The notes beneath the pieces are model-generated. The model was not told the origin of the DNA and did no database searches. It saw only the letters and a program-made list of their open reading frames with translations. From positions 15,500 through 79,499 of the IMG/VR virus record IMGVR_UViG_3300046010_009647: 64,000 bases of DNA; one strand, 5' to 3'. A program made the position numbers and the translations under genes. Origin of the DNA: a virus. This document shows, in pieces, positions 46,352 through 63,822 of this stretch (positions within the stretch are counted from its first letter, which is position 1; the number at the start of each line of letters is the position of its first letter).

Positions 46352-46376
46352 CGTCAAGCTGGACGTTAAACGTAGC
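46352..46376 (+). ncRNA. Divergent H-type pseudoknot (family B)
   Basis: CGTC-AAGCTG-GACG-TTAAAC-GTAGC. Confidence 0.5.
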
Positions 46377-46401
46377 AGACAACTCGGCGGTCGGTCACGA
46401 C

Positions 46402-49105: not shown

Positions 49106-49133
49106 CTATCCCAAACACCACAGCAACTAACCA

Positions 49134-49508: not shown

Positions 49509-49510
49509 TC

Positions 49511-49548
49511 ACTGGGCATCCACACGCAATGTGGTGTAAGTCCCAAGT
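49511..49548 (+). ncRNA. Family A bulged-stem RNA motif
   Basis: TGGG-CA-T-CCACA-CGCAA-TGTGG-TG-TAAGT-CCCA. Confidence 0.7.
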
Positions 49549-49572
49549 ACAAACCATTCAACTCACAACACA

Positions 49573-49779
49573 ATGACAGAAGACAACAAGCGGTATCACC
49601 TCATCATCAACGTTGATGAAAAGTATGCCATCGTCAACGCACTAGCCTTCTATCATGCACACCACACCCTGGGTGCATTGATGGATGAAGATGAGTGTGA
49701 ACAATACATGCTCGCATTCCAAGAAGATGGTCCTGCCTTTGTTGATTCCCTAGCAACAAAGGTGGCCAATACCTTCTGA
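49573..49779 (+). CDS. Early hypothetical protein
   Basis: ORF track. Confidence 0.6.
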   Translation: MTEDNKRYHLIINVDEKYAIVNALAFYHAHHTLGALMDEDECEQYMLAFQEDGPAFVDSLATKVANTF

Positions 49780-49780
49780 T

Positions 49781-49823
49781 CCCTGGGCAGCACCGACGTA
49801 AATACGGTGTGTAAGTCCCAGGG
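49781..49823 (+). ncRNA. Family A bulged-stem RNA motif
   Basis: CCCTGGG-CA-G-CACCG-loop-CGGTG-TG-TAAGT-CCCAGGG. Confidence 0.75.
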
Positions 49824-49852
49824 TTTTACTGTCTACCTACTCAATTCAAGCA

Positions 49853-49990
49853 ATGACTGAACTCGATCCCAACTACAACGCTGACTTGCTTGATGCCATG
49901 GCTGACATGGCATATGAACAAGAGCAAGCCATGCGTGAAGAATACGAACTCAACCCACCTGAACTGGAGACTTACGATGACCAAGCCTAA
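49853..49990 (+). CDS. Very acidic 45-aa peptide
   Basis: MTELDPNYNADLLDAMADMAYEQEQAMREEYELNPPELETYDDQA. Confidence 0.55.
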   Translation: MTELDPNYNADLLDAMADMAYEQEQAMREEYELNPPELETYDDQA

Positions 49991-50077
49991 GTACACACTG
50001 CGTCAAGCATGGGATGACGGTGACATCATCATCATCCTGATCGCAATCATTTCAATCATCATCACAGAGTTTGCATC

Positions 50078-50446
50078 ATGTCTTACATCTCAGAACTCAA
50101 GAAGTTCTACCCCAAGTCCTACAAAGCACGCTTCGCAATCAATGCCTACAACGTGCACAAGTACTTCGAGCACAAAGACCCAACGGTCGTCACGGTCCAC
50201 GAAACCTATCTCAGGTACGGCGGAACCGAAGAAGGAGGTTGGTACTACACCCAAGGAGACCCTCTCGTCAGCCACTGCATCTTCTCCAAGAGGCAAGCGG
50301 TCCAGGTCTACGTCAAGTACTTCGAAGAGTACGAGATCGAAGGCCAACCTTCTCTTGGAGATACGACAACTCGATCCAACATCGACATCAGTTTCTCCAA
50401 TGAACTAGCTAAGGCTTACCCTGAATCCCGTCCGTACTACTGCTGA
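50078..50446 (+). CDS. Conserved phage hypothetical protein
   Basis: YGGTEEGGWYY...YPESRPYYC. Confidence 0.7.
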   Translation: MSYISELKKFYPKSYKARFAINAYNVHKYFEHKDPTVVTVHETYLRYGGTEEGGWYYTQGDPLVSHCIFSKRQAVQVYVKYFEEYEIEGQPSLGDTTTRSNIDISFSNELAKAYPESRPYYC

Positions 50447-50449
50447 TCA

Positions 50450-50692
50450 ATGCAAGCAACTGCAACACCTGCACTCAGTATCAACCAACGCAATCTCTAT
50501 GCGTACTACCTTAATCACAAGAAGAAGTATGGGAACACACCCTGCTTCGTACCTAAGCTTCCATCGCAAAACTCAAGGCTTGAGCAATATCTCCAGGCCT
50601 TGGTGAGACTGGAAGAATACGGATTGATACGTGTAGACAGAAGCAGTGCTAACTACACAGCATGGATCATGCTTGCACCTAAGAGCGCATAA
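50450..50692 (+). CDS. Winged-helix-like protein
   Basis: LSINQRNLY...ALVRLEEYGLIRV. Confidence 0.6.
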   Translation: MQATATPALSINQRNLYAYYLNHKKKYGNTPCFVPKLPSQNSRLEQYLQALVRLEEYGLIRVDRSSANYTAWIMLAPKSA

Positions 50693-50769
50693 CGTAGGTA
50701 TTTATACTTAATATTGTTCGCTATTCGCAAATAGCGAATACATGCCAATACTTCAGTCATAGCCTCAAT

Positions 50770-50810
50770 CCTGGGCGTCACCTACGTAAGTATGGTGTGT
50801 AAGTCCCAGG
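50770..50810 (+). ncRNA. Family A bulged-stem RNA motif
   Basis: CCTGGG-CG-T-CACC-loop-GGTG-TG-TAAGT-CCCAGG. Confidence 0.75.
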
Positions 50811-50813
50811 GGT

Positions 50814-51041
50814 TTATCCGACTACATTACGTACATCAGGTGTAAACCGTTGCATCTGATCTAACAACCTAAGCTCTGCTTGTTTGTTCTGCATCGGAAT
50901 GCTTTCATTCCGTACAACAGATGTTAAGAAGTCCATTACTTTATCTTGTGGTGGCATAGAACCATGAGCCTTCATGTATTCTTGTTGCCATCCTTGAAGG
51001 AAAGGACTGTTATTCATTGCATATCTACCAGCTAATAACAT
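50814..51041 (-). CDS. Late-type small protein in opposite orientation
   Basis: MLLAGRYAMNN...; TAGGAT -10 box upstream on the minus strand. Confidence 0.55.
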   Translation of the reverse strand: MLLAGRYAMNNSPFLQGWQQEYMKAHGSMPPQDKVMDFLTSVVRNESIPMQNKQAELRLLDQMQRFTPDVRNVVG

Positions 51042-51070
51042 GGACCTAAGTATGTCCTTAAACTGCTCAG
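51042..51070 (+). ncRNA. Family B H-type pseudoknot
   Basis: GGAC-CTAAGTAT-GTCC-TTAAAC-TGCTCAG. Confidence 0.65.
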
Positions 51071-51097
51071 TCCATCCTACTCACCATCAACTCAACC

Positions 51098-51385
51098 ATG
51101 GAACAAGCTAAGAAGTATCCAGCAATTGACTGGACCAAGAATGAGTATCATCAATTGCAGCTAGTAGTTGATGCACTCAAAGCCATTTGTGCTCGCGAAG
51201 ATAAGCGTCATCAAATGGACGAGCATCTCGATCCACACATGCGTAACGTTGTCGATGAGGTAATCGGCATGTTAGAAGATGAGATCGACTACGATCCAAC
51301 ACCTCACGAACCTGGTGAACCACCCATCACTGCAGCAGAAATGCATGCAGCTGCATGGAAAGAACACCAGGAAATGCATCGATAA
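51098..51385 (+). CDS. Early hypothetical protein
   Basis: DYDPT..GEPPIT..EMH..AW motif. Confidence 0.65.
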   Translation: MEQAKKYPAIDWTKNEYHQLQLVVDALKAICAREDKRHQMDEHLDPHMRNVVDEVIGMLEDEIDYDPTPHEPGEPPITAAEMHAAAWKEHQEMHR

Positions 51386-51558
51386 CATCAGGTAGTACAC
51401 ATGTATTTCCCCCTCACACTCCCCCAAGGAGAACCAGGGGGGAACCTTCTATATACATAAGTACTTCCTATGCATTACATCTTTTAATACACCAATTAAT
51501 CCTTGACAACCCTGGTAGACTAACCAAGTCTTCTAGACCACACATCAATTCAACTCAC

Positions 51559-51768
51559 ATGACAAACTCAAACACTCCTCGCATTCCTGATTCAATTGAC
51601 ATCCAACGTCTTCAAGCTATGCAGCTTGTAGCCAAGATGAAAGAATCAGCTGAGAAACATGGCATTGGTTTTATCGGGGGCTTTATATCCCCCAATGGAG
51701 AGAAATTTGTAATGACAAACATGGATGATGATGATGCCATAGCACTCATGCCGGAGGATCTCAAGTGA
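51559..51768 (+). CDS. Early hypothetical protein
   Basis: ATG after TCAACTCAC. Confidence 0.6.
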   Translation: MTNSNTPRIPDSIDIQRLQAMQLVAKMKESAEKHGIGFIGGFISPNGEKFVMTNMDDDDAIALMPEDLK

Positions 51769-51962
51769 CCAAGAAATCTCCCATTAGTTTTGATCGCACC
51801 ATTCATGGTGTGAACATCACTGAACATGGTATCAAGTCAGTAAGTAAACAGATCAAACTTGGACCATTCCAACTGACTGTCAACGCCAGTCCCAATGGCG
51901 TCAAAGGATCAGTCAGTATTCCTGGCACAGGCTTGAGCATTCCAAACATTAAGTTAATCTAA
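51765..51962 (+). CDS. DUF4236-like protein
   Basis: KQIKLGPFQLTVN.S..G...SVSIPGTGLS. Confidence 0.6.
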   Translation: MTKKSPISFDRTIHGVNITEHGIKSVSKQIKLGPFQLTVNASPNGVKGSVSIPGTGLSIPNIKLI

Positions 51963-51999
51963 AGATCTGGGCATCCTTACGGTGTAAGTCCCAGGTCTT
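51962..51999 (+). ncRNA. Family A bulged-stem RNA motif (minimal)
   Basis: AAGATCTGGG-CA-T-CC-TTAC-GG-TG-TAAGT-CCCAGGTCTT. Confidence 0.75.
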
Positions 52000-52021
52000 G
52001 TCCACCAACTCAACTCAATTC

Positions 52022-52207
52022 ATGTCTGTTTACGTTGACTATCTCAACATGTTTGATCGCATCAATCTTGCTGACTGCGCAAAGCGCAGAGCAAGTGCAA
52101 ATGTTTTAGATGAAACACGATTCAATGGCGAGTACGACACAGCACGTCTGTGGATGAAGTACCGCCTCATCAAGACCACCCACCATTCCTACGTGGAGGA
52201 CAACTGA
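52022..52207 (+). CDS. Early hypothetical protein
   Basis: ATG after CAACTCAACTCAATT. Confidence 0.55.
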   Translation: MSVYVDYLNMFDRINLADCAKRRASANVLDETRFNGEYDTARLWMKYRLIKTTHHSYVEDN

Positions 52208-52458
52208 TGACAGTCCTTGCAATCGAACATACTTCATTCACTGACACTCATGTCACAGTTACAGCAGTTGTTGACGACATGCGCCTGCTCTATCGGGCGA
52301 CTCGCTTTGACCCTGAAGAGTGGGCTCCTGCATTGTGCACAACAACTATTGAGTTGGATCCAGAGGAACCGATTCCTCTTGACGAAGATGGCTTCTGCAG
52401 CTATCTTGATCAACTCGATCCTCTGTGGCAACTACTCGATCTGAGTGACGACGAATGA
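52207..52458 (+). CDS. Acidic hypothetical protein
   Basis: GGAGG RBS; V.AVVDD...AT.FDPEEW.PALC. Confidence 0.65.
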   Translation: MTVLAIEHTSFTDTHVTVTAVVDDMRLLYRATRFDPEEWAPALCTTTIELDPEEPIPLDEDGFCSYLDQLDPLWQLLDLSDDE

Positions 52459-52552
52459 TTGGTTTCTCACTTGAATTCAAACGCTGGTACTTTGTACTGC
52501 GTGGTCCCAAGGGTCGAGTGTACTTGGCAACTGGCTTTATGAAATGATCAAC

Positions 52553-52580
52553 CGTCCTGGGCATGACGTTAAACTGCCTA
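52553..52580 (+). ncRNA. Family B H-type pseudoknot
   Basis: CGTC-CTGGGCAT-GACG-TTAAAC-TGCCTA. Confidence 0.7.
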
Positions 52581-52605
52581 CACTCAACTCAACTCCAACC
52601 TCATC

Positions 52606-54321
52606 ATGTATTTCCAACTCCCCTCCAATCTGCAACAAGAACTCCTGGCTTACGATCCAAAGCTCAAGGCTTTGGTCAAAGAGCAGGAACCTAAGAAGAC
52701 TACGAAGAAAGCTAAGTATCCACTGGGTAATATCCCACATCTTATCCCTGAGAATGTGGTACGTGCTGGTCTACAACAAGATGCGATTGACCGCATCAAT
52801 GCATCAGGTGTACCTGAGCGTTATCACCGCTTTACCAAGGTAGTTGATATCGCTACACCACAAGCACGTACGATTACCATTGCAGTTCTTTATCACTTCG
52901 AGCAATGCTGGTACGCCGCATGGTTACCTGCCAAGGGAGAGGACTATCTCTATGGCTATGCCTATGCATTCAAGAATACTGCTGCTGCAGCTAAAATGTT
53001 GCCTCGCCGTATTTGGGAAAGCAAAGATCAATGCACTGAACACACCATTGGTCGTGGCTCACAGACCTTTACATACTCACGTACTATAACCAAGGAAGAT
53101 GTTATCTCCGGCAATGATGCGCGCAACTGGCGTGCTATGGGTATAGCTAGTTACTACCAGAAGTCACGTGATATGAATGACGCAATCAATAGCTTTGAGA
53201 AAACCTTGATGGAAACAATTCCAACATGGGACGATTGTCGTTCTATGTTTGATCGCATCAAATGTAATAACCTTTTTGATGCACTTGAGTTTCCATTTCC
53301 ACTAACAAACTGTATTGAAGATCGTTCAGCATTCAAGCTAACGGTTGATGGCATGGTTAACCTTGCTAATCGATGGATGGCATCGAATACTTACGCATCT
53401 CTACACTACCTAACCATGCATAGTATTGAACACATTATTACTGCACCTTCTATTAAGAAACAACTTCAACTTATGCTTGACAAATCTGTAGCTGAATACA
53501 ATAACCCTGAGAACAATCAGCGCAAGGCAGTCAAGTATGGCTACAAAGAGTTTGAGCAAACGACAAACTCTATCTACTTCATTAATCATGTGTGGCCTGA
53601 TTGCCCACTTGATTACTACCGTACATACTTTGAAGAGCTACGTGTCGTTAATCTCTATCACCTACGTACCAATGATGCCTTGCTTGCTTGGCTGCGTGAG
53701 CACATGTCTGTTGCATCATTCCTTAATATGATGCGCAAACATGTTGAGAAATCAAATGAAGAGCATTCCAGGATGTCTAAGTTTTCTGATCACGACTTTA
53801 TTATCCATGCATGGTATGAGATGAATGATACGTTCTCAATGATGATGCGTGTCTTTGAGAACGGCAAGACTATCGAAGCACCTAAGCGTTGGCGCATGCC
53901 TGACTTCCATGACTATGTGCAAGCAGAAGCATGGAAGATAGCTAACAAGAAGGAATCGCTGCACCAGGATTTATTCCCTACACCTGTCAAGGTCAGCATG
54001 GGTGACAGTGATTGGACATTCCTTCAACCCATTGACACTCATCAGTTAGCGCAATGGGGACAAGCTGTCCGTAACTGTGTTGGCTCTGCGTCCCAGTATG
54101 CAGAGGACATCAAGAAACGCAATCACTTCATTGTGCTTTGTATGATTGATGGCAAGCCAACCTTCACTATCCAACTGGATGTATCCATGGGTGTGATGAA
54201 TGTCAAGCAGATTGCTGGCGTCGGCAACCAGCGATTGGACGAAGATCAGAAGGAGAAGTACTCCAATGCATTCAAGCTGGCCTTGCAATCTCGGAATGAT
54301 GAGCTAAGCTCTAAGAGCTGA
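52606..54321 (+). CDS. PcfJ-domain protein
   Basis: C-terminal FHD...L..WG..VRNCVGS...Y...FTIQL...Q..G..N. Confidence 0.75.
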   Translation: MYFQLPSNLQQELLAYDPKLKALVKEQEPKKTTKKAKYPLGNIPHLIPENVVRAGLQQDAIDRINASGVPERYHRFTKVVDIATPQARTITIAVLYHFEQCWYAAWLPAKGEDYLYGYAYAFKNTAAAAKMLPRRIWESKDQCTEHTIGRGSQTFTYSRTITKEDVISGNDARNWRAMGIASYYQKSRDMNDAINSFEKTLMETIPTWDDCRSMFDRIKCNNLFDALEFPFPLTNCIEDRSAFKLTVDGMVNLANRWMASNTYASLHYLTMHSIEHIITAPSIKKQLQLMLDKSVAEYNNPENNQRKAVKYGYKEFEQTTNSIYFINHVWPDCPLDYYRTYFEELRVVNLYHLRTNDALLAWLREHMSVASFLNMMRKHVEKSNEEHSRMSKFSDHDFIIHAWYEMNDTFSMMMRVFENGKTIEAPKRWRMPDFHDYVQAEAWKIANKKESLHQDLFPTPVKVSMGDSDWTFLQPIDTHQLAQWGQAVRNCVGSASQYAEDIKKRNHFIVLCMIDGKPTFTIQLDVSMGVMNVKQIAGVGNQRLDEDQKEKYSNAFKLALQSRNDELSSKS

Positions 54322-54370
54322 AGCCACAGCAGGGGCATCCTATCCTCGTAAATGGGATGCCTCTTTACCT

Positions 54371-54580
54371 ATGGACTACACCGATGACCAACTGCTTGCC
54401 ATGGCCATGGCCAACATTGGTGAATACATCACGGACAACTCACCACAGTACATCTTGATTGAAGAAGATCCTCGTAATGAGGATGACTACGATAGCTGGA
54501 CTTACGGAATGGAAGTCCTACCTCAAGACCACACTTGGCAGTCAGATTCAATTGACGTAAGTCCAAGTGAGGCCGACTAG
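54371..54580 (+). CDS. Acidic hypothetical protein
   Basis: ORF; 3' end overlaps an RNA motif and the tRNA 5' end. Confidence 0.55.
   Translation: MDYTDDQLLAMAMANIGEYITDNSPQYILIEEDPRNEDDYDSWTYGMEVLPQDHTWQSDSIDVSPSEAD
54532..54569 (+). ncRNA. Family A bulged-stem RNA motif abutting the tRNA
   Basis: CACTTGG-CA-GTCAG-ATTCAA-TTGAC-G-TAAGT-CCAAGTG. Confidence 0.7.
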
Positions 54581-54646
54581 CCCAACGGCAGAGGCAACGG
54601 ATTTAAGCTCCGTCAAGTCTCGGTTCAAATCCGAGGTCGGCTACCA
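54571..54646 (+). tRNA. trnL: tRNA-Leu(TAA), short variable loop, encoded CCA
   Basis: Acceptor GGCCGAC/GTCGGCT, anticodon stem ACGGA/TCCGT with loop TT-TAA-GC, T-arm CTCGG-TTCAAAT-CCGAG, A73-CCA. Confidence 0.9.
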
Positions 54647-54673
54647 ACCCATTAAACTTTTTACTTAACTAAA

Positions 54674-54871
54674 ATGAATCAAGATCAAGGGATGTTTTTG
54701 CGTGATTGCATTCGTGCTAGCGCTAAAATGATTGCATGCGAACTGGCAGTATTACATGATGTTGCAAGTTCACTTAGCGCTATAACAATTGAACTGAAAG
54801 AGATTAACTCTAATTTATATGACATAGACTCTAAATTATCTAAGCTTGCTGCTCAAACTGAAAAGCCTTAA
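54674..54871 (+). CDS. Coiled-coil hypothetical protein, AT-rich
   Basis: ORF track. Confidence 0.5.
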   Translation: MNQDQGMFLRDCIRASAKMIACELAVLHDVASSLSAITIELKEINSNLYDIDSKLSKLAAQTEKP

Positions 54872-54883
54872 AAATTTGATTAA

Positions 54884-54913
54884 CCTGGGCATCTCTAAAG
54901 TGTAAGTCCCTGG
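54884..54913 (+). ncRNA. Family A bulged-stem RNA motif
   Basis: CCTGGG-CA-T-CT-CTAA-AG-TG-TAAGT-CCCTGG. Confidence 0.7.
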
Positions 54914-54940
54914 CTAACAACTTACCTCCAACTCAACATC

Positions 54941-55303
54941 ATGCAATTCTTTGCTGCTTTCAAGTCCATCATCCCTGAGTTCCATGCTTATGCAGATGAG
55001 GACAAGCGTTACAACATTGGTGCTACCTGGACCGACAACGAAGGTCTGCGTGACTACCACAACCTTGAAATGCGGTACGTCCGTAACTCTGAGAAGCTTG
55101 CGCTCCAGGGTGAGCCACAGCCCGATGGCTCATGGAAATACGTCGAACCCAATGGCAGCGTCCATGTGATCTCAGCAGAACGAGCACGGCACTTCATGGA
55201 GACCACGCAAGCCCATGCCACCATGATGTGTGGAATGCTTGAGCGCCTCAAGGATGCTGGTCTCTATGACAAGTTCATTGACACCGACGCAAATCCTGCC
55301 TAA
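54941..55303 (+). CDS. Hypothetical protein
   Basis: ORF with strong codon bias. Confidence 0.65.
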   Translation: MQFFAAFKSIIPEFHAYADEDKRYNIGATWTDNEGLRDYHNLEMRYVRNSEKLALQGEPQPDGSWKYVEPNGSVHVISAERARHFMETTQAHATMMCGMLERLKDAGLYDKFIDTDANPA

Positions 55304-55306
55304 GGT
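55278..55306 (+). promoter_or_regulatory. Sigma70-type promoter
   Basis: TTGACA-N17-TAAGGT. Confidence 0.55.
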
Positions 55307-55321
55307 ACTAGCGGAATGTTC

Positions 55322-55346
55322 GGCCCCTGCGCAAGCGGGGGTCTTT
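55322..55346 (+). terminator. GC hairpin, probable terminator
   Basis: GGCCCCTGC-GCAA-GCGGGGGTC-TTT. Confidence 0.65.
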
Positions 55347-55350
55347 CTCT

Positions 55351-55671
55351 ATGACACACGACTCCATTGATCTCGACCTTGTCGACAAGACCGTTGCATT
55401 AATACCAGATCATGCTTGGACTCAAGTGAGACAAGCAATTGTTACAGCCTTAGTTGATAACATGCCTGGCTCCGTGATCCAACATCTGACTGGTTCTTAT
55501 GATGACTTTGATCGTGCAGAAAAAATTCTGTACGATTACTACGAACTTCCTGCACTGTCGCATGAACTGATTGCAGATGCATTCAAGATCATGGGCGAAG
55601 TCAATTGTTTTGAACTACTTCATTCATTGAACCTTACCGAAGATGAATTGCAGGCAATGCAACAGCAGTAA
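55351..55671 (+). CDS. Hypothetical protein
   Basis: ORF track. Confidence 0.6.
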   Translation: MTHDSIDLDLVDKTVALIPDHAWTQVRQAIVTALVDNMPGSVIQHLTGSYDDFDRAEKILYDYYELPALSHELIADAFKIMGEVNCFELLHSLNLTEDELQAMQQQ

Positions 55672-55978
55672 CACACGCGTTACTTGTACTGAACATCTGG
55701 GATCTGATGTAACCAAACGTTATTGTCGTTGTCTTGATTGTGGTTGCAAGTTCCGTACTGTTGAACGGTATGAAGTTGCTAAACCAATTCCATTGAAAGC
55801 CTACAAACCTATTGGTACCAGGAATGGAAACTCTTTCTTGACTGACAATGATGTGTTGATGATTCGTCATCTACATCAGAAAGGATTGAGCAACGGTCAA
55901 ATAGCAATACGCTATGACACTGCTCGCAGTACAATCTCACGTATTGTCAACTACAAAACTTACACCAACATCAAATGA
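55643..55978 (+). CDS. Zn-ribbon (NrdR/Ogr-like) plus HTH regulator
   Basis: CRQCNS...RYCRCLDCGCKFRTVE; LSNGQIAIRYDTARSTISRIV. Confidence 0.75.
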   Translation: MNCRQCNSSNTRVTCTEHLGSDVTKRYCRCLDCGCKFRTVERYEVAKPIPLKAYKPIGTRNGNSFLTDNDVLMIRHLHQKGLSNGQIAIRYDTARSTISRIVNYKTYTNIK

Positions 55979-56340
55979 CACAACAACACCCCATCACCCC
56001 ACCGCCAGAGCTGATAAAGCAGTGGTACATGGAGGCTACTGGCCCGGACTACGAGGGAGAGATCGCTCGCCGCGCTGCTCAATGGGGCGCCGACCAGGAG
56101 CTAGAGGCTTGCCGCATGGAGATCATTGATGGAGCAGGACTTTTTTACATCGACGAAACCAGTGACCGTGTTCGTTTAACCGAAGACATCTGGACTGCCC
56201 GCCGCCCCAAGCCGCCGAGCTTGAAGGAGCAGGCGTTACAAGCACTTGCTGAAGCCGACGTTGGTCTAACAGAATTGGAGTGGCCTCAATGTTCCGACAC
56301 CATCCGCCGCGCTCTTGAACAACTTCCCGACAACAACTAA
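55975..56340 (+). CDS. Conserved phage hypothetical protein, GC-richer
   Basis: HPITPPPEL..AAQWGADQELEAC..RPKPPSLKEQAL..IRRALEQLPD. Confidence 0.7.
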   Translation: MTQQHPITPPPELIKQWYMEATGPDYEGEIARRAAQWGADQELEACRMEIIDGAGLFYIDETSDRVRLTEDIWTARRPKPPSLKEQALQALAEADVGLTELEWPQCSDTIRRALEQLPDNN

Positions 56341-56348
56341 TTACTACA

Positions 56349-56648
56349 ATGACAACCAAGCGACAATTTGATTACAAGATTGGTGACCGTGTTGCTGAAC
56401 GTCCCAAACCCCATGGGATCTACACAAACAACCAACAAACAAGAGAACGCATCTCTCAGTACAGGAGCCAGCGGTATGGTGAAGTGGTTGGTATTAATTA
56501 CAAGAACAACTCACGTGGTGCTACCCAAAAGTTCTTGCTTGTTCGTTGGGATCATTTACCTAGCCCAACTGAACATGCCACTGCACGCATCTGTCCTGTG
56601 TCAGCACTAGAACGTCTGACCAAAGAAGTCCTTGTCCCTGGTGAATGA
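56349..56648 (+). CDS. SH3-like hypothetical protein
   Basis: YKIGDRV..GEVV..LVRWD. Confidence 0.6.
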   Translation: MTTKRQFDYKIGDRVAERPKPHGIYTNNQQTRERISQYRSQRYGEVVGINYKNNSRGATQKFLLVRWDHLPSPTEHATARICPVSALERLTKEVLVPGE

Positions 56649-56649
56649 C

Positions 56650-56859
56650 ATGACTGAAAACCAAATTCATTTCATACGTGGTTGCTGTACAACAATCCTT
56701 ATGTTTGCAGGGATTGGTTTATTAGCTGCAATTTTTTTGTCACCTGATGAACCTGTAGACAAAGCGAAGTTTGAAGTCATTGATCAGTACGAAGGTTGTT
56801 CAGTAATCCGTTACACTGATCCCACATCTCGCTGGCATTACTTCCTTAAGTGCTCATGA
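56650..56859 (+). CDS. Small membrane-anchored protein
   Basis: TM helix, FEVIDQYEGC.VIRY..YFLKC. Confidence 0.6.
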   Translation: MTENQIHFIRGCCTTILMFAGIGLLAAIFLSPDEPVDKAKFEVIDQYEGCSVIRYTDPTSRWHYFLKCS

Positions 56860-57509
56860 ACGTACAACTTGTTTGGGCAACGCCCAATGCAGAGGAGATG
56901 ATCACGCGCATGGCACGCGTCTCTGCGCCCAAGAATCAAGACAACATGGATACCGCACCTAAGTTGTTGCGTTATCTGATTAAACATCAGCACTGGTCAC
57001 CTTACGAGATGGCCAACATGTGTGTTGAAATCAACACAACACGTGCAATCTCACCGCAGATCCTTAGGCATCGTTCATTCAGCTTCCAGGAATTCAGTCA
57101 GCGTTATGCTGATGTCTCTGATGTAGGCAGCATCATACTGCCGCATCTACGTAGTCAAGACTACAAGAACAGACAGAACTCCAACGATGATCTAAAGGAA
57201 CGCTTGGGTGGTGAGAAGCTTGCTCACTACTACAGACGGATGTCTACAATCTTGGAAGACTCCAAGCATTTGTACCAAGAGATGATCAGTGAGGGTATCG
57301 CAAAAGAGTCAGCGCGTTTTGTGTTGCCTCTTGCTGCACCAACCCGTTTGTATATGAATGGCACTATCAGATCTTGGATCCATTACCTACAACTGAGGAC
57401 TCATGAATCAACCCAACTCGAACACAGAGAAATTGCAGAAGCAATCAAAGGAATCTTCTGCAAAGAATTCCCAATCATCGGAGAGGCTGTATTCTCAACA
57501 GATCAATGA
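56856..57509 (+). CDS. thyX: FAD-dependent thymidylate synthase
   Basis: HWSPYE, QILRHRSFSFQEFSQRY (RHRX7S), KESARFVLP, TQLEHR. Confidence 0.97.
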   Translation: MNVQLVWATPNAEEMITRMARVSAPKNQDNMDTAPKLLRYLIKHQHWSPYEMANMCVEINTTRAISPQILRHRSFSFQEFSQRYADVSDVGSIILPHLRSQDYKNRQNSNDDLKERLGGEKLAHYYRRMSTILEDSKHLYQEMISEGIAKESARFVLPLAAPTRLYMNGTIRSWIHYLQLRTHESTQLEHREIAEAIKGIFCKEFPIIGEAVFSTDQ

Positions 57510-57621
57510 TCTGATTGAGAGGTATAAAAAACCAGAGCAAGCACGCCAGTTTCTTATGGAAGCTGGCATCATTGATGAGAATGGAGACCTCATGCCTCCA
57601 TATCAAAACACCTCAACCTAA

Positions 57622-57738
57622 TTAAAAGGTTGCAGCACTTTGCTTCTTCAGTTCCGTGACGGCATGCTTGGACTCTATATCTTTGCGTGCCAGTTTTTTC
57701 CGTTTGTCCACCAAGTAAACGATCAGTGCTTTGTTCAT
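57622..57738 (-). CDS. Small basic peptide, 38 aa
   Basis: MNKALIVYLVDKRKKLARKDIESKHAVTELKKQSAATF, ATGA-coupled to the DUF4278 gene. Confidence 0.5.
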   Translation of the reverse strand: MNKALIVYLVDKRKKLARKDIESKHAVTELKKQSAATF

Positions 57739-57887
57739 TTGACTTGTCCTCCAGTGACGTAAGGAAAGTAGCAGATGCTACGGTAGGTCAGGCAAAGCCA
57801 TGGACGGTGTGCTAAGTTCCACCATGCCTTGTCTGCCTTAGCCTGATCCTCTTGGTTGTATTTGCAACCACGATACGTTAACGTCAT
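57735..57887 (-). CDS. DUF4278-like protein, 50 aa
   Basis: MTLTYRGCKY...LTYRSICY (two LTYR units). Confidence 0.75.
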   Translation of the reverse strand: MTLTYRGCKYNQEDQAKADKAWWNLAHRPWLCLTYRSICYFPYVTGGQVK

Positions 57888-57894
57888 GGCTTTG

Positions 57895-57908
57895 GTATCT
57901 ATTGATAC
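57895..57908. promoter_or_regulatory. NtcA-like box between the -10 and the DUF4278 start
   Basis: GTA-TCTATTGA-TAC; TATAGT -10 on the minus strand at 57914-57919. Confidence 0.55.
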
Positions 57909-57961
57909 GGAAACTATATGACGATTGATGTATATGATGTAGTTCACCATGTAACATAACT

Positions 57962-58153
57962 ATGATTTCTATTTCAGAAACCTGCAAAGAGTTCAACAAA
58001 GCAATGGGTATCAAAGGAAGGTTTTTCCTTTTTGTCCTTGGTTTTGTTGGGCTATTGTTTCCTGGTTGGGTAGCCTACGTTGTTCTTTCTGGGCTTGCTA
58101 AATGTACAGAAGATAAAAATATGTATGCACTTTTAAAACAACTTACAGACTAA
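57962..58153 (+). CDS. Small membrane protein
   Basis: Hydrophobic segment. Confidence 0.5.
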   Translation: MISISETCKEFNKAMGIKGRFFLFVLGFVGLLFPGWVAYVVLSGLAKCTEDKNMYALLKQLTD

Positions 58154-58155
58154 CA

Positions 58156-58344
58156 ATGTCTTTTCTTTTGGCTCGTGTCACAGATGAATCTGATCTTCCA
58201 GATGATTACTATTCATTTGTCCAACAGTTTACATACTGGCAAGGAAGCTACGCTTCTCAACTTGATACGGAATCATTGATGATCTTGCTATGGCAAATGG
58301 ACAAACGTATTAAAGAGCTTGAGGCAAATCAAAGTAATCTGTAA
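58156..58344 (+). CDS. Hypothetical protein
   Basis: ORF track. Confidence 0.5.
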   Translation: MSFLLARVTDESDLPDDYYSFVQQFTYWQGSYASQLDTESLMILLWQMDKRIKELEANQSNL

Positions 58345-58640
58345 TGAAAGGATTTAGTTCCACCAAGCAACACACACGTTCATCTAGTTATTGGGTTGCT
58401 TCCTACACCAAAGACAATCAGGATGAGCCGCTTGGCATACACAAGAAAGTCTTGTCCTATAAACCAGGGCAAGATAAAGAAGTCTTGATGACAAACTATT
58501 GCAACTCCATCATGAAGATCAACAGAAACATATGGGAGATCTTGGTGCACCAAGGTCCATCTGAGGTCCCAGACTCAGGTGATCAAATCGTGATTCGTTT
58601 ATCACGCGAACCTTTCAAAGGCTGTAGTCAACTGCAATAA
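58344..58640 (+). CDS. Hypothetical protein
   Basis: ORF track. Confidence 0.55.
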   Translation: MKGFSSTKQHTRSSSYWVASYTKDNQDEPLGIHKKVLSYKPGQDKEVLMTNYCNSIMKINRNIWEILVHQGPSEVPDSGDQIVIRLSREPFKGCSQLQ

Positions 58641-58656
58641 TTCTGAACGGGAAGAT

Positions 58657-58684
58657 GGACCTGAGCATGTCCTAAAACTACTCA
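58657..58684 (+). ncRNA. Family B H-type pseudoknot
   Basis: GGAC-CTGAGCAT-GTCC-TAAAAC-TACTCA. Confidence 0.65.
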
Positions 58685-58719
58685 TCAGTTTTTCTTATCA
58701 TTCAACTCAACTCAACACC

Positions 58720-59496
58720 ATGAAACTCCTCAAATTCTCCACAGGTAACGGCAAGCTCAAGAACCGTCTGATCTTTAACATCCCAGCGGGCTATGCATGT
58801 CCACACGCTGGTGTCTGTAAGACCATGGCTGATCGTGTCACTGGCAAGATCATGGACTTACCTCAGTTCACTGGCACAGAAGCAGATGAGTATCGTTGCT
58901 TTGCTGCCATGGCAGAGACCAGGCCGACCGTACGTGAAGCTCGTTGGCACAACTGGGATCTGTTGCGTGAGACCATGCATATGAATGGGAATCAAGCCAT
59001 GCTTTTGCGTGATCTGATCGACCTATCACTCTCGATGCAGCCATCAAAGAAGCTGCTTCGGATCCATGAGTCAGGCGATTTCTGGACTGAAAACTACATG
59101 CGTGCTTGGATCATGGTCGCACAAGAGCGTCCTAAGCAAACGTTCTACGCGTACACCAAGTCGCTTGGTATGTGGCTGAACCTCAAGGACATCATCCCAT
59201 CTAACTTCTATCTCACTGCATCGCAAGGTGGGACACTCGATTACCTGATCCCCAAGTATCCTGAGGTGTTTCAGCGCATTGCTTATGTGGTCTACACAGA
59301 AGAGGAAGCGCAAGAGCGTGGGCTAGAGATTGATCACTCAGATGAGCTATGCTTAGGCACCAAGCCTTTTGCTCTTTTAGTTCATGGCTCACAGCGAGCA
59401 GGATCAGAAGCAAGTAAAGCACTCAGCAAACGAAAGAAAGAAGGAGGCTTTATCGGATACGGAAAGTCAAATAAAACCTTGCATCAAATGCGGTAG
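58720..59496 (+). CDS. GP88-family protein (radical-SAM-like Cys cluster)
   Basis: GNGKL..FNIPAG.ACP.AG.C...CFA, RIHESGDF, FYAYTKS. Confidence 0.75.
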   Translation: MKLLKFSTGNGKLKNRLIFNIPAGYACPHAGVCKTMADRVTGKIMDLPQFTGTEADEYRCFAAMAETRPTVREARWHNWDLLRETMHMNGNQAMLLRDLIDLSLSMQPSKKLLRIHESGDFWTENYMRAWIMVAQERPKQTFYAYTKSLGMWLNLKDIIPSNFYLTASQGGTLDYLIPKYPEVFQRIAYVVYTEEEAQERGLEIDHSDELCLGTKPFALLVHGSQRAGSEASKALSKRKKEGGFIGYGKSNKTLHQMR

Positions 59497-59899
59497 TATC
59501 CGACGTTATCCGCCACGCCCTGGTACAAAAACTGGGGCGTGTATTGATTGCGCCAATGCAAGGAATAAAAGATGGGAAGACAAAAATAAAGAACGTGTTA
59601 AAGAAGTGCAACTTTCATATAAGATGCGCAATCTTGAAACATGGAAAGAATCTAAACGTAAGTCAGTTGCAAAAGAAAGAAAAAATAATCCAGAAAAAAC
59701 AAACGCACGCAAACAAGTGAGGGACGCCATAAAAAAAGGGATTCTTTTACCTGTATCACAATGTGCTTGTAAAGACTGCGGTACAACAGCCTGTGACTAC
59801 CATCATGAAAATTACCTATTACCTTTAGAAGTTGTTCCTTTGTGTCGTTATTGTCACATTAAAAGACACAAGACTTGCGGATCAAGTGAAATCGGATAG
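59384..59899 (+). CDS. HNH-like endonuclease with Zn fingers; start uncertain
   Basis: CIKC, CIDC, CKDCG...HHENY..PLEV..LCRYCHIKRH; AT-rich. Confidence 0.7.
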   Translation: MAHSEQDQKQVKHSANERKKEALSDTESQIKPCIKCGSIRRYPPRPGTKTGACIDCANARNKRWEDKNKERVKEVQLSYKMRNLETWKESKRKSVAKERKNNPEKTNARKQVRDAIKKGILLPVSQCACKDCGTTACDYHHENYLLPLEVVPLCRYCHIKRHKTCGSSEIG

Positions 59900-59925
59900 T
59901 ATGCATCCGTCTTTCATTTGATCCC

Positions 59926-60159
59926 ATGAGTTACGTCATTGCTTGCTGGCGGTGGGGCACACCACATGCCATCACCGCTAACGGTGAAGCCAATCAATTT
60001 GAACTCATTCCACTAGACTCTGATGTAGCTTTGAACAAGATCTTTTCCCATCCTTATCGGGCAGGGGCACAACAGATCTTGACTTGGATTAACGACAACG
60101 ATGAAGACCTTGCCTGTAAAGAACTCTCAATTCAAGATGAATCCAGGTTCCGTAAATGA
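59926..60159 (+). CDS. Hypothetical protein
   Basis: ORF track. Confidence 0.55.
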   Translation: MSYVIACWRWGTPHAITANGEANQFELIPLDSDVALNKIFSHPYRAGAQQILTWINDNDEDLACKELSIQDESRFRK

Positions 60160-61960
60160 TCGGTACCTTGTCTTTGACCTCGAGAGTGATGGTCTTTATG
60201 ACAAGGTTACCAAGATCCATTGCATTGTGATCTATGACATCACAGCCAACCAAACTTTTAGTTATGGGCCTGATCGCATTACTGATGCTATTGCTCATCT
60301 GGCAACCGCTGATGTTTTGATAGGCCATAACATTTGTTTTTATGACGTACCAGTTCTGCAAAAGCTGCATTCATTTGACTGCAAATCACGCATCATTGAC
60401 ACACTCATTTGCACACGATTGATCTGGCCCAAGGAGAAACTCTATGACCTTGACATCGAACAATATCCGCAGGTTCCACCGAACCAGCGAGGTGCTGCAT
60501 CCCTTAAGGCATGGGGATGGAGACTGGCCGATCACAAGATCAGCTTCAAAGACTTCTCGGAATATTCTGAGGAGATGTTGGAATACTGCAAACAAGACGT
60601 TGCAGTTACAACAAAACTCTGGGCGCACATCGTTAAAGAGAACTATCCAGAACCAGCTCTTAAGCTTGAGCACGACTTTGCTCTCGCCATTAACAAACAA
60701 ATTAGAGCAGGTGTTCCTTTTGATGTGGATGCATGTCTTGATCTTGTGGATGATCTCCGAGCAAAACAAACAGAACTTGAAACACATTTGAAAGAAATCT
60801 TTCCACCACTTGCGCATCGCACTTGGTTTACTCCCAAGGTCAACAATCAGAAACGTGGCTATGTCAAAGGAGTGCCCTTTGAAAAAGTGCGGCATGAAGA
60901 ATTCAATCCTGGATCTCGTGACCAGATTGTTAATCGACTTAAGGCTAAGTACGGATGGGAACCAGAAAAGACAACTGAAAAAGGAAATCCAATCCTTAAT
61001 GATGAAGTGTTAGAGGCGTTGCCTTATCCAGAAGCCAAGCCTCTGGCAGAATACATGCTCATCCAGAAACGTCTTGGTCAAATTGCAGATGGCAACAACG
61101 CTTGGCTCAAGCTGGTTAATAATGACAGCGGTTGTATGCACGGTGACGTTATTACTAACGGCTGCGTCACTGGTCGTTGTGCTCACCGATACCCAAATAT
61201 GGGTCAGGTGCCAGCGGGTTATTCGCCATACGGCAAAGAATGTCGGTCATTATTTCATGCGCCACAAGGATGGGACATGATCGGTATTGATGCCAAAGCA
61301 TTGGAGCTGCGTTGTCTTGCTGGCTATCTTGCCTTGTGGGATGGCGGTGAGTACGCACGTGTTGTAACAGATCCAGAGATTGATATCCACGTTTACAACC
61401 AAGAGCGTTTTGGTGTGGCTACCAGGGACATCAGCAAGCGTTTGCTGTATGCCGTGTTGTATGGCGCTGGTCACCTCAAGGCTGGCAGCATTGTGGATCC
61501 GAATGAAAAAGATGAAGAAGTTCTGCGTGAACTAGGAAGAACTGCAATTAATTCATTCATGACTGGTGTGCCAGCATTGAAGAAACTAAAGCAACAGATC
61601 GACAGTTACATTGCACATCGTGGCTATCTCATTGGATTAGATAAGCGCATCTTGTATTGTCGTTCTGCATTCAAGGGATTGAATGTGTTGTTGCAATCAG
61701 CAGGTGCAATTCTTATGAAGCAAGTTGTTATTAACATTCATAACAACATTGAACAGAACCTTGGCTTGATTCACGGCAAAGACTGGGAGCAAGTCCTGAT
61801 GGTGCACGACGAATGCCAGTTGGTTTGTAAGCCGCAATACACAGGGCGTATCCGTGACCAAGCCATGGCAGCTTTTCCACAGGCACAGAAATTCTTTGGC
61901 TTCTTGTGTCCGCTTGAGGGGGATGCTAGAGTTGGGTCGAATTGGAACGAAACCCATTAA
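60137..61960 (+). CDS. polA: T7-like family A DNA polymerase with 3'-5' exonuclease
   Basis: Exo FDLESD, GHNI..YD, YCKQD; motif A DAKALELR, motif B KRLLYAVLYG (Tyr at the 762-equivalent), motif C VHDE. Confidence 0.97.
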   Translation: MNPGSVNDRYLVFDLESDGLYDKVTKIHCIVIYDITANQTFSYGPDRITDAIAHLATADVLIGHNICFYDVPVLQKLHSFDCKSRIIDTLICTRLIWPKEKLYDLDIEQYPQVPPNQRGAASLKAWGWRLADHKISFKDFSEYSEEMLEYCKQDVAVTTKLWAHIVKENYPEPALKLEHDFALAINKQIRAGVPFDVDACLDLVDDLRAKQTELETHLKEIFPPLAHRTWFTPKVNNQKRGYVKGVPFEKVRHEEFNPGSRDQIVNRLKAKYGWEPEKTTEKGNPILNDEVLEALPYPEAKPLAEYMLIQKRLGQIADGNNAWLKLVNNDSGCMHGDVITNGCVTGRCAHRYPNMGQVPAGYSPYGKECRSLFHAPQGWDMIGIDAKALELRCLAGYLALWDGGEYARVVTDPEIDIHVYNQERFGVATRDISKRLLYAVLYGAGHLKAGSIVDPNEKDEEVLRELGRTAINSFMTGVPALKKLKQQIDSYIAHRGYLIGLDKRILYCRSAFKGLNVLLQSAGAILMKQVVINIHNNIEQNLGLIHGKDWEQVLMVHDECQLVCKPQYTGRIRDQAMAAFPQAQKFFGFLCPLEGDARVGSNWNETH

Positions 61961-62439
61961 TGACAACGGAAGAAGCTCAAGAATTATTTGAGTACAAAAA
62001 CGGATTTTTGTATTGGAAAAAATCTGGCAGTGGAAGAAAATTAAATAAACCAGTTGGCTGTATAGATACTAAAGGTTATGCTGTTTGCAGGGTAAAAAAT
62101 AAACAATGGAAATTGCACCGTCTTATTTGGGTTTGGCATGGAAACGAATTAGATTCTAATAAACAAATTGATCACATTGATCGTAATCCATTAAATAATA
62201 AAATAGAAAATTTGCGTTTAGTAACTCCTTTAGAGAATCGCCAAAACAATGGTGGAAAATTTGTTAAATTAAAAAAGAAAGACAGATGGCAATGGTGGGA
62301 AGCGTATACTCCAAGAACTGGAAACAAGCCTGCAAAAACTATCGGTTGTTATAAAACCAAAAAAGAAGCTGAAGAAGCTGTGAGGCTTTACTTTGAAGGC
62401 GACTCTCGTGTAGGATCCTCATGGGCTGAAACCCACTAA
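61960..62439 (+). mobile_element. HNH(-AP2-like) homing endonuclease fused to a duplicated polA C-terminus
   Basis: LHRLIW..IDHIDRNPLNNKIENLR; ends EGDSRVGSSWAETH, like polA EGDARVGSNWNETH; AT-rich. Confidence 0.9.
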
Positions 62440-62445
62440 GTAAAA

Positions 62446-62473
62446 CGTCCTAAGCATGACGTTAAACTGCTTT
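62446..62473 (+). ncRNA. Family B H-type pseudoknot
   Basis: CGTC-CTAAGCAT-GACG-TTAAAC-TGCTTT. Confidence 0.7.
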
Positions 62474-62493
62474 AACACTTCACATCTGATCTC

Positions 62494-63312
62494 ATGAATT
62501 ACGTTGACGTTTGCGCCATCCTTAACGAGAATCCTCGTGAGGTATACACCAGTGCAACTTCATCTAATCTCTGTGCGGAAGTAATGCTTCCGCCTGTTGG
62601 CAACAAAGCTCCCACACTTCTAACCTTCCATGTTTACGGGAAAGCCTGCGACCGATTTAAAGACTTTTCCAAAGGAAGCCGTATCTACATTCACGGCGCC
62701 AAGTTACGGTTTGATCTGGAATCAAAGGCGTACTCGCTCCATGGAGGAGTTATTGCTCAAGTTACTGAAGCATTCCCTGTCCTCAACGACGTCATCTTGA
62801 CGGGACGTTGCATCAAAGACATTGATCAAACTGATGCACGTGCCTTCAAGACAACAGCAGATGGCTTGATGATTGCCAATCAAACAATCTCTGTTAACAC
62901 TGGTCGTAACCAAGCTGATCTGTTTAACTTCTATGCAATTAACACGGCACAAGATAAGTTAAACCAAGCTGAACTTCTGGTTAATTTCACGCGTAAAGGA
63001 ACAGGCATCACCATCCGTGGTCGTCTGGTTACCGACGCATGGACGGACAAGGACTCCCAGCAGCGTCGTAGCATCACCAAGATTCAGTTGGTGCAGATGA
63101 CACTGGCTCCTAAGAGCGGTGAGTCTCAACCAAAATCTGTGGCATCCCAGACAACCGTGGCATCCACCGATAACGTTGCTAGCCTATGGGGAGGCAAGAC
63201 CGCTGAAGAACCAGTCGATCCTTGGACCCAAGCCTCAGGTGGTGGCCTGCCTGATCTCCCTGGTCAGTATGGCAGCGCACCTAACTTTGACGACAACGAA
63301 CCTCCATTCTGA
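62494..63312 (+). CDS. ssb: Single-stranded DNA-binding protein with two OB folds
   Basis: NDVILTGR..KG..ITIRGRL..WTDKD.Q.RS; N-terminal second OB-like unit; acidic tail DDNEPPF. Confidence 0.85.
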   Translation: MNYVDVCAILNENPREVYTSATSSNLCAEVMLPPVGNKAPTLLTFHVYGKACDRFKDFSKGSRIYIHGAKLRFDLESKAYSLHGGVIAQVTEAFPVLNDVILTGRCIKDIDQTDARAFKTTADGLMIANQTISVNTGRNQADLFNFYAINTAQDKLNQAELLVNFTRKGTGITIRGRLVTDAWTDKDSQQRRSITKIQLVQMTLAPKSGESQPKSVASQTTVASTDNVASLWGGKTAEEPVDPWTQASGGGLPDLPGQYGSAPNFDDNEPPF

Positions 63313-63315
63313 TTC

Positions 63316-63546
63316 ATGCCTCTTCAACTTGATCTTAAAGAACAAGATCTTCTTTCTTTAGAAGACGCTATTGCGTACGAGTTTTTCATGGACAGTGCAT
63401 ACAAAATTATGCACAGTGCCAATGAAAAAGATTTTGACATTGTTGAGCAAGTTGCAAAACTTGCTACAGCCTCCTATCTAATTGCGCACATTTTTTGCGA
63501 AGCACGTTTAGCTAACTCACAACAAACCAATGACACCGACGCATGA
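63316..63546 (+). CDS. Hypothetical protein
   Basis: ORF track. Confidence 0.55.
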   Translation: MPLQLDLKEQDLLSLEDAIAYEFFMDSAYKIMHSANEKDFDIVEQVAKLATASYLIAHIFCEARLANSQQTNDTDA

Positions 63547-63769
63547 TCAGTTTACTCTCCTTTATGAGGATGAGAATACTAAGCTTTTGTATGAATTCAA
63601 AGCTGTTGTTGCTGACGATGTAATCAATCGCCTTGTGGATTTCCTCAAGGGTTGTGGCTACATGGAAAGCAGCATCTTTGAATGCATGAAGGAATCTTCT
63701 GAGATGTACTTCGATTCATTAAGTACTAAGCAATCCTTAATGAATTGGGGCAAGCCTGATCCAGAATAA
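63530..63769 (+). CDS. Hypothetical protein
   Basis: EF....DDVI...DFLKGCGY. Confidence 0.6.
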   Translation: MTPTHDQFTLLYEDENTKLLYEFKAVVADDVINRLVDFLKGCGYMESSIFECMKESSEMYFDSLSTKQSLMNWGKPDPE

Positions 63770-63774
63770 AGATC

Positions 63775-63802
63775 CGTCCTGAGCATGACGTTAAACTGCT
63801 CA
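63775..63802 (+). ncRNA. Family B H-type pseudoknot
   Basis: CGTC-CTGAGCAT-GACG-TTAAAC-TGCTCA. Confidence 0.75.
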
Positions 63803-63822
63803 CTTCTGACTACGAAACAACC

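Follow-up and report, generated by a model that had tools for sequence, protein, structure and literature searches.

What does a compact RNA pseudoknot do when it recurs, always on the same strand, between the genes of a cyanophage replication block? The question is raised by a 64,000-nucleotide stretch of viral DNA (the window), bases 15500-79499 of the 79.5-kb IMG/VR virus record IMGVR_UViG_3300046010_009647, which is rated complete and whose closest isolate is the Synechococcus phage S-EIVl (74% nucleotide identity across the polA-SSB region). The pseudoknot copies lie on the + strand within a co-directional early/replication gene block (~45.8-64 kb) whose products include a PcfJ-like protein, ThyX, a GP88-family protein, a family A DNA polymerase, an HNH endonuclease and an OB-fold SSB, with gene starts assigned by a simple longest-ORF (open reading frame) rule. 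Our analysis favours, with a probability of about 0.35, the reading that the knot is a self-contained structural boundary, or bumper, between the cistrons of a long early/replication transcript. All five copies named in the preliminary description, at 51042, 52553, 58657, 62446 and 63775, are present at these positions on the + strand; a degenerate pattern gave the same number of matches where 0.32 are expected by chance, a count reached in 0 of 100 shuffles, and a covariance model run with filters off over the whole 79.5-kb genome found no copy beyond the five.

The pseudoknot has a fixed size of 28 nucleotides (nt) and reads, from 5' to 3', as a 4-nt strand of the first helix (S1), a single C (loop L1), a 6-nt strand of the second helix (S2), one junction base that is usually U, the 4-nt 3' strand of S1, the loop U(U/A)AAAC (loop L3) and the 6-nt 3' strand of S2. 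To follow it among relatives we built a covariance model from 12 copies with S1 alone as its structure, leaving S2 out, and searched 82 loci around polA relatives. The 129 matches are all on the + strand, that is the gene strand, and all belong to the S-EIVl-like clade with the exception of one weak match (locus L081); S-EIVl itself has seven copies on the gene strand, in which the first pair of S1 is variously U-A, G-C, C-G and A-U. Taken over the 102 distinct copies found in relatives, 94.5% of cells pair in the two-helix structure, compared to 19-43% when the strands are taken out of register, and double changes occur in 8 of the 10 base pairs: in three of four pairs in S1, where 100% of cells pair, and in five of six in S2. 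The covariation score is 0.404 versus 0.172 for shuffled alignments (none of 500 reached the observed value) and at most 0.094 for slid registers. The covariation of S2 is an independent result, since this helix was absent from the search model; its variants include UGAGCA/UGCUCA, UAAGCA/UGCUU, UGGGCA/UGCCYA, UGGACA/UGUCCA and UGGUCA/UGACCA. The switch of the first helix between GGAC/GTCC and CGTC/GACG that had been noticed in the window is real, with two of the four base pairs flipped, and the proposed pairing of the loop with the segment past the T(T/A)AAAC linker, which is perfect at 63775, covaries throughout the 102 copies. Compensatory changes in both helices strongly support the H-type pseudoknot, formed by S1 and S2, that the preliminary description had predicted.

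Could the same conservation reflect a DNA site, either a promoter for the host or phage RNA polymerase or a single-stranded DNA signal? The element is intergenic, conserved in sequence and lies ~50 nt upstream of start codons, and the TAAACT that spans L3 and S2 resembles a -10 hexamer. This explanation is nonetheless highly improbable: compensatory changes in two crossing helices, together with many G-U pairs, are unexpected for a duplex DNA site, TAAAAC variants disrupt the hexamer, and in some phages the knot comes straight after a terminator, leaving no room for a promoter. The sequence upstream of the knot holds no information above background, and no -35, -10 or extended -10 element is conserved there. 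The frequent G-U pairs would be A-C on the opposite strand, and a generic knot finder that gives one false match per 906 kb of shuffled sequence detected no locus with knots on both strands. Strict strand specificity, the abundance of G-U pairs, the absence of upstream information and the crossing helices all argue, at the level of sequence, that the element is an RNA fold in the sense transcript and not a DNA site.

Each helix on its own is weak (-0.7 to -5.4 kcal/mol), and the best-conserved positions of the element are unpaired, namely the AAA of L3 (2.0 bits), the C of L1 and the junction U. Conserved loop bases of this kind are the pattern expected with tertiary contacts, as in other minimal pseudoknots, and the invariant AAA and C are plausibly required for tertiary stabilisation because neither helix would be stable alone. 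The loop lengths are sterically compatible with both helices, with 1 nt over the 6-bp S2 and 6 nt over the 4-bp S1, and the A-rich L3 (UWAAAC) probably lies in the minor groove of S1.

The placement of the knot relative to its neighbouring genes is equally constrained. In the S-EIVl-like lineage, where spacing was measured on 108 distinct copies, the knot never starts less than 5 nt after the upstream stop codon and sits exactly 5 nt away in 47 copies, 6 nt in 9 and 7 nt in 4, while its 3' end is never less than 19 nt from the downstream ATG, with a sharp mode at 20 nt and a distance of 19-22 nt in 54 copies. All three stop codons occur upstream of knots. With the generic knot finder we measured, in three independent sets, how far upstream the closest stop lies that ends an ORF of 80 codons or more. 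The knot began 5-9 nt past this stop in 37/75 copies of the S-EIVl-like set, 15/51 of the other viral set and 19/32 of the bacterial set. This corresponds to 29-59% of knots; when 28-nt slots are drawn at random from the non-coding sequence of these loci the share is 3.8%, an 8- to 16-fold enrichment for knots, although many copies are tens of nucleotides away from any stop. The upstream ORF is mostly on the same strand as the knot, and in bacteria the downstream gene is often on the opposite one. This, together with the proximity to stops, indicates that the knot is at least as much the 3' end of the upstream cistron as a 5' leader.

With the stop codon occupying the A site and a spacer of 5 nt, the first base to pair lies at about +12, just past the ribosomal helicase, and a position ~20 nt upstream of an AUG corresponds to the 5' edge of the initiating 30S subunit. 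With this ribosome geometry, which relies on textbook values and not on cyanobacterial measurements, the observed spacing suggests that the typical 52-56-nt gap is tiled ribosome-knot-ribosome. In the boundary model, the knot would sit as near to the upstream stop as it can without being melted by the terminating ribosome (the 5-nt minimum) and, in this lineage, also as near to the next AUG as the initiating 30S allows (the 19-20-nt minimum). It would stay folded between the two ribosomes, so that the entire intergenic gap would be either folded or covered and no naked RNA would be exposed. Nucleases that enter or travel along naked RNA, such as RNase E, the 5'-to-3' exonuclease RNase J and 3' exonucleases, would be blocked, and neighbouring cistrons could then decay independently of each other. 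The knot would also keep the G-poor leader that follows it single-stranded and free of mis-pairing for Shine-Dalgarno-independent initiation. We infer that what acts is the fold as such, and that its benefit is protection or insulation. The exonuclease block that had been put forward in the preliminary description would fit the positional data.

The spacing to the stop codon can also be read in another way, in which the knot acts on the terminating ribosome at the mRNA entry site and tunes termination, recycling, readthrough or re-initiation and coupling. The 5-9-nt spacing is common to the three independent sets, the 5-nt minimum puts the first pair about +12 from the P site, which is the geometry of frameshift and readthrough stimulators, and all three stop codons are used. 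We nevertheless consider it improbable. No slippery heptamer was seen by eye just upstream of the stops, no systematic scan having been made, and readthrough at the copy at 63775, also judged by eye, would add only ~18 residues before a TGA and would not join the next ORF. The copies that lie far from any stop are not accounted for, and genome compaction combined with a steric limit gives the same lower bound.

The knot can be replaced by other structured elements. At orthologous genes of the S-EIVl-like clade it is well kept, upstream of PcfJ in 34 of 38 orthologues, of GP88 in 40 of 42 and of SSB in 36 of 41. At the gene for a 95-amino acid protein, by contrast, where a knot is found here (51042), 11 of 14 relatives have instead a bulged stem of a second repeated family, Family A, followed by a near-identical leader. 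The reverse is seen at the gene at 49134, which has a Family A element here and a knot in one relative, and the gene at 54941 is preceded by Family A here and by a tRNA in many relatives. These exchanges between knot, Family A and tRNA suggest that the slot requires a compact stable fold rather than one specific sequence. Family A elements, which consist of a YTGGG...CCCAR stem with an unpaired TAAGT, occur at window positions 49053-54913 (for example 49511-49546, 51962-51996 and 54884-54918); they fill the same stop-to-leader slots and swap with the pseudoknot or a tRNA at orthologous genes. The window also contains a tRNA gene at 54571-54643 (54.1 bits), ~30 nt upstream of an ATG, and two terminator-like GC hairpins with a T-rich run, at 54330-54370 and 55310-55350, which stop a few bases short of the ATGs at 54371 and 55351 and whose structure is conserved in relatives with a changed stem sequence.

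The five copies in the window illustrate these rules individually. The first (51042..51069, +, 44.3 bits) is of the GGAC/GTCC type, with S1 formed by 51042-45 and 51054-57 and S2 by 51047-52 and 51064-69, the latter including one A-C mismatch and one G-U pair; it lies upstream of the 95-amino acid ORF, whose ATG is at 51098. The second (52553..52580, +, 44.8 bits) has a CGTC/GACG S1 and a TGGGCA/TGCCTA S2 with one G-U pair, and precedes the PcfJ-like gene of 571 amino acids (ATG 52606). A two-codon mini-ORF, ATG AAA TGA (52539-52547), stops exactly 5 nt before this knot. Relatives have a full-length ORF of ~85 codons ending at the matching position, and the upstream gene may thus be truncated or shifted here. 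The third copy (58657..58684, +, 41.5 bits) combines a GGAC/GTCC S1 with a TGAGCA/TACTCA S2 that has one C-A mismatch, and is upstream of the GP88-family gene (ATG 58720). The fourth (62446..62473, +, 48.0 bits), with a CGTC/GACG S1 and an AAGCA/TGCTT S2 of 5 bp (5/6 pairs), starts 6 nt past the stop codon of the HNH ORF, and 20 nt separate its end from the SSB ATG at 62494. The fifth (63775..63802, +, 47.7 bits), again of the CGTC/GACG type and with a perfect TGAGCA/TGCTCA S2, starts 5 nt past a TAA; the ATG at 63823, which opens a gene cut by the end of the record, follows its 3' end at a distance of 20 nt. The position of copies before the PcfJ, GP88 and SSB genes, as originally reported, is thus seen, and the 95-amino acid ORF and the cut gene can be added to these. 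Two divergent copies had also been proposed. The one at 46352 (46352..46379, +; CGTC-AAGCTG-GACG-TTAAAC) is a degenerate candidate only, which keeps S1 and L3 and has a 6-nt loop with a weak S2 of at most 4 bp (GCTG/TAGC); the covariance model did not report it at E up to 10. The one at 45823 has neither S1 nor L3 and is not a member of the family.

The leaders that separate the five knots from their start codons (51070..51097, 52581-52605, 58685-58719, 62474-62493 and 63803-63822, all on the + strand) are G-poor, with 0-2 G per 20-35 nt, CA-rich with frequent ACTCAAC repeats, and without a Shine-Dalgarno motif. The same type of leader also follows the other structured families and the tRNAs in this gene block.

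The motif is not confined to the S-EIVl-like lineage. A scan of IMG/VR for a pattern in which S1 and L3 were fixed and the 3' strand of S2 was left free gave at least 98 matches; among the matches listed, 67 have 6/6 S2 pairs and 23 have 5/6. In this pattern-defined set, comprising 97 distinct sequences, S2 pairs in 90.5% of cells versus 26-38% in slid controls, the covariation score is 0.578 versus 0.287, and one pair is found in all four Watson-Crick orientations. About half of the listed IMG/VR loci have nothing in common with this genome by tblastx, and BLAST of two unrelated knot-bearing contigs against GenBank phages returned just a 39-nt match to a human faecal phage, or nothing. Several unrelated contigs have two to four copies on one strand with wholly different S1 sequences, and more than 10 S1 variants occur in unrelated loci, such as AGAC/GTCT, TCTG/CAGA, CAAC/GTTG, ACTC/GAGT and CCTC/GAGG. 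The same pattern was applied to 596 Gb of bacterial genomes, where ~140 chance matches are expected; among 122 matches listed, ~76 have a chance-like 0-4 S2 pairs and 46 have 5-6 pairs, the latter coming from Saccharibacteria (many), Enterococcus prophages, Selenomonadaceae, Erysipelotrichaceae, Finegoldia and others. The census from these collection scans is a lower bound. Clustering of 4,929 ORFs from knot-bearing loci resolved at least 34 groups of loci, unrelated to one another, from phages, prophages and bacteria, in which the loop bases are conserved in the same way as in the cyanophages.

The genes downstream of the knot in these loci are as varied as the loci themselves. They encode scaffold proteins of the PF06810 family (the gut-phage group L097 and the Enterococcus loci L217 and L219) and of the DUF4355 family (three further loci), with three independent associations between knot and scaffold gene, but also ThyX, MazG-like, UDG-exonuclease fusion, DUF3768, Ser/Thr kinase and polymerase-related proteins. 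A replication- or SSB-specific regulon is disfavoured by this variety. The idea of an SSB-sensed regulon, raised in the preliminary description by reference to phage T4, is not supported, and it is further weakened by the SSB of the window, an OB-fold protein of PF00436 / phrog_44 and not of the gp32 type, by its short CA-rich leader, by the knots that precede many non-SSB genes in unrelated phages, and by the exchange of the knot for Family A or a tRNA. All-against-all clustering of the 4,929 ORFs (within ~7 kb of knots) found no protein family in more than 2 of the at least 34 groups.

An SSB operator is a special case, and a small part, of a broader possibility in which the knot is an aptamer. 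Its trans-acting partner would be a small molecule, as for a riboswitch the size of preQ1-I, or a widely conserved or repeatedly recruited protein, and binding would stabilise the knot and alter the translation or transcription attenuation of flanking genes. We regard this as a serious rival, if on balance an unlikely one, because the loop bases are conserved across phyla and the sequences downstream of some knots look like switches. The unpaired AAA, the C of L1 and the junction U are the best-conserved positions even across unrelated phages and bacteria, and the architecture is like that of preQ1-I and of the T4 gene 32 operator. In the Saccharibacteria loci L216, L263, L301, L239 and L267, the knot is followed 4 nt later by an 8-nt complement of knot positions 8-15, with pairing kept via G-U; this arrangement may be a switch or part of a longer non-coding RNA. 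On the Saccharibacteria contigs, a 200-nt non-coding stretch comes after the complement and is followed by the DUF3768 gene. Tandem copies also occur, two knots following each other immediately at L142:362-420 and L270:1375-1430. At L199:4620-4800 three knots spaced 75 nt apart occupy a divergent intergenic region, and an intrinsic terminator comes straight after two of them. The three knots lie upstream of the gene for a 736-amino acid Ser/Thr protein kinase and opposite that for a 1248-amino acid ResIII/DEAD helicase, and the region has the look of a defence-type locus that carries small RNA units or tandem attenuators. The copies in the window, on the other hand, have no expression platform: their leaders are unstructured and G-poor, with no Shine-Dalgarno sequence to hide and no terminator. 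The downstream genes are too diverse for a metabolite regulon, no protein within ~7 kb is common to the locus groups, and the knot can be exchanged for Family A or a tRNA at the same gene. For the SSB as partner, the protein type, the 20-nt leader and the predominance of sites at other genes all count against it.

A few neighbourhoods connect the knot with the ends of RNAs. In several Firmicutes-type phages it lies 0-10 nt after an intrinsic terminator, and on one bacterial contig (L306:2259-2336) it is found 6 nt past a TAA with a type III hammerhead ribozyme starting at its 3' end; the hammerhead has a complete core and scores 30.2 bits (E 8e-5), below the Rfam cut-off of 48.5. Terminators and hammerheads are places where RNA ends arise, and they hint at a link with RNA-end formation. 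A self-cleaving RNA, or a processing signal for a host enzyme (RNase P, Z or E) comparable to tRNA punctuation, would agree with the tRNAs in equivalent slots, with the coaxial stack of S1 and S2, whose topology is that of an acceptor-arm mimic, with the hammerhead fusion at L306 and with the resemblance to the first half of the pistol ribozyme (a hairpin, UUAAA and loop pairing). We find this explanation very doubtful. The sequence past S2 shows neither a conserved CCA-like tail nor any other cleavage context, Rfam ribozyme families (pistol, hammerhead and others) have no match on the window copies, and at 28 nt the knot is, to our knowledge, smaller than any natural self-cleaving RNA. Hammerhead-like cores near 285 knots are at background level, with L306 the only exception (1/285). 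In one unrelated phage group (L136, L165 and L116), several knots have GGGGCCCC-type palindromes and long non-coding stretches, and not a gene start, within 10-25 nt downstream.

We favour the structural boundary over these alternatives because it is the sole reading that fits the spacing limits, the proximity to stops, the 3'-UTR-like (untranslated region) bacterial contexts, the association with terminators, the varied downstream genes and the fold swaps. Four observations weigh against it. The loop sequences shared by cyanophages, gut phages and Saccharibacteria are not obviously needed for a boundary, and a specific partner could explain them; several unrelated knots are followed by complements of a knot strand or by a terminator, as in a switch; Family A elements lie less than 5 nt from the stop, so that the tiling rule is not general to the elements that fill the slot; and in some other phages the knot is just 8-9 nt from the ATG, so that the 19-nt rule fails outside the lineage.

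Small covarying pseudoknots with invariant loop bases across phyla are usually riboswitches, ribozymes or mechanical roadblocks. It is possible, and we propose it only tentatively, that the knot represents a new widespread functional RNA class with a specific property, either the first prokaryotic exonuclease-resistant RNA (xrRNA), capping the cistron just outside the terminating ribosome, or a new minimal aptamer for a signal common to many hosts. Should it block nucleases, it would correspond in phages to the viral xrRNAs and offer synthetic operons a compact, portable insulator; ligand binding would define a new aptamer class. The motif, which has no match in Rfam 15, is present in freshwater cyanophages, Firmicutes gut phages and prophages, and Saccharibacteria elements, with a placement rule of 5-9 nt past a stop. 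It also bears on the organisation of cyanophage early operons that lack Shine-Dalgarno sequences, in which a structured RNA and a CA-rich leader form exchangeable units.

How does the knot compare with known RNAs? No description of the motif was found in the literature searched, and no Rfam 15 family falls on the knot in the 19-kb region, in a 76-nt piece searched at E up to 10, or in 17 bacterial and 8 viral loci, with the exception of a sub-threshold match to GP20-b. The latter (RF03003) lies upstream of GP20/scaffold genes in phages and is a candidate cis-regulatory motif without an assigned function (Weinberg et al. 2017, PMC5737381; PMC10690425). The two share the niche before PF06810 scaffold genes (the L097 group and the Enterococcus prophages L217 and L219), and the 5' half of GP20-b likewise combines a short stem, whose loop pairs with the 3' side, with a UAAAA linker. 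However, GP20-b has a second hairpin without counterpart in the cyanophage copies. Its characteristic features, the second hairpin and UAAAAA before a GP20/PF06810 gene, are absent from the window, where leaders are unstructured and genes differ, and its type of context occurs in other loci only (L097, L217). The GP20-b model scores 19.2 bits on an Enterococcus prophage copy, versus a gathering score of 36.2, and has no match on the window copies at E up to 10. A true GP20-b was found in 1 of 151 genomes (37.5 bits); the knot differs from it in detail and, because the knot model does not match it, we consider the two analogous and not members of the same family.

The 5' pseudoknot of the tisB standby site resembles the present arrangement in that a knot is followed by a single-stranded landing region for the 30S subunit (PMC7708055), but its sequence is unrelated and occurs only once, and the ribosome-binding site on which it acts is sequestered. 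The PeSL cassettes of T4-type phages are similarly modular, exchangeable regulatory units flanking small early genes; they differ in consisting of a promoter and a stem-loop and in acting at the level of DNA and transcription. Mimicry of a CRISPR repeat or of a ToxI-like antitoxin was also considered and set aside, as the partner of S2 is not repeat sequence and the copies are scattered.

The frameshift triplex knots of luteoviruses and the xrRNAs of flaviviruses and plant viruses share with the knot a size of ~28-45 nt, an A-rich loop and probable minor-groove triples, and the placement described here would suit a mechanical block to a 5'-to-3' enzyme. They are set apart by the slippery site, none being seen here by eye, and perhaps by a ring-like topology. 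The Rfam xrRNA families have no match on the knot, and we know of no xrRNA from phages or bacteria. The preQ1-I riboswitch (RF00522) is likewise built as a minimal H-type pseudoknot, ~30 nt long, in which P1 is followed by an A-rich tail and single-stranded positions are conserved, but the knot has a single-nucleotide junction, no obvious ligand pocket and no Shine-Dalgarno sequence in P2. The preQ1-I model has no match in the 76-nt search at E up to 10, and the varied downstream genes are not accompanied by queuosine genes nearby.

The autoregulatory pseudoknot of T4/T2 gene 32, a translational operator, is also a compact H-type fold with a one-nucleotide L1 and a second loop of 6-7 nt in a phage leader, before an unstructured stretch, and one copy in the window also precedes an SSB gene. 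The differences are that this SSB belongs to the unrelated family PF00436, that its leader is 20 nt long and CA-rich instead of long and A/U-rich, and that the knot is present in multiple copies, four of the five in the window and most elsewhere preceding genes other than SSB, without sequence similarity to the gene 32 knot. In architecture alone, the knot matches the T2/T4 gene 32 pseudoknots, with their one-nucleotide L1 and 6-nt A-rich L3, and matches preQ1-I and the luteoviral triplex knots more loosely.

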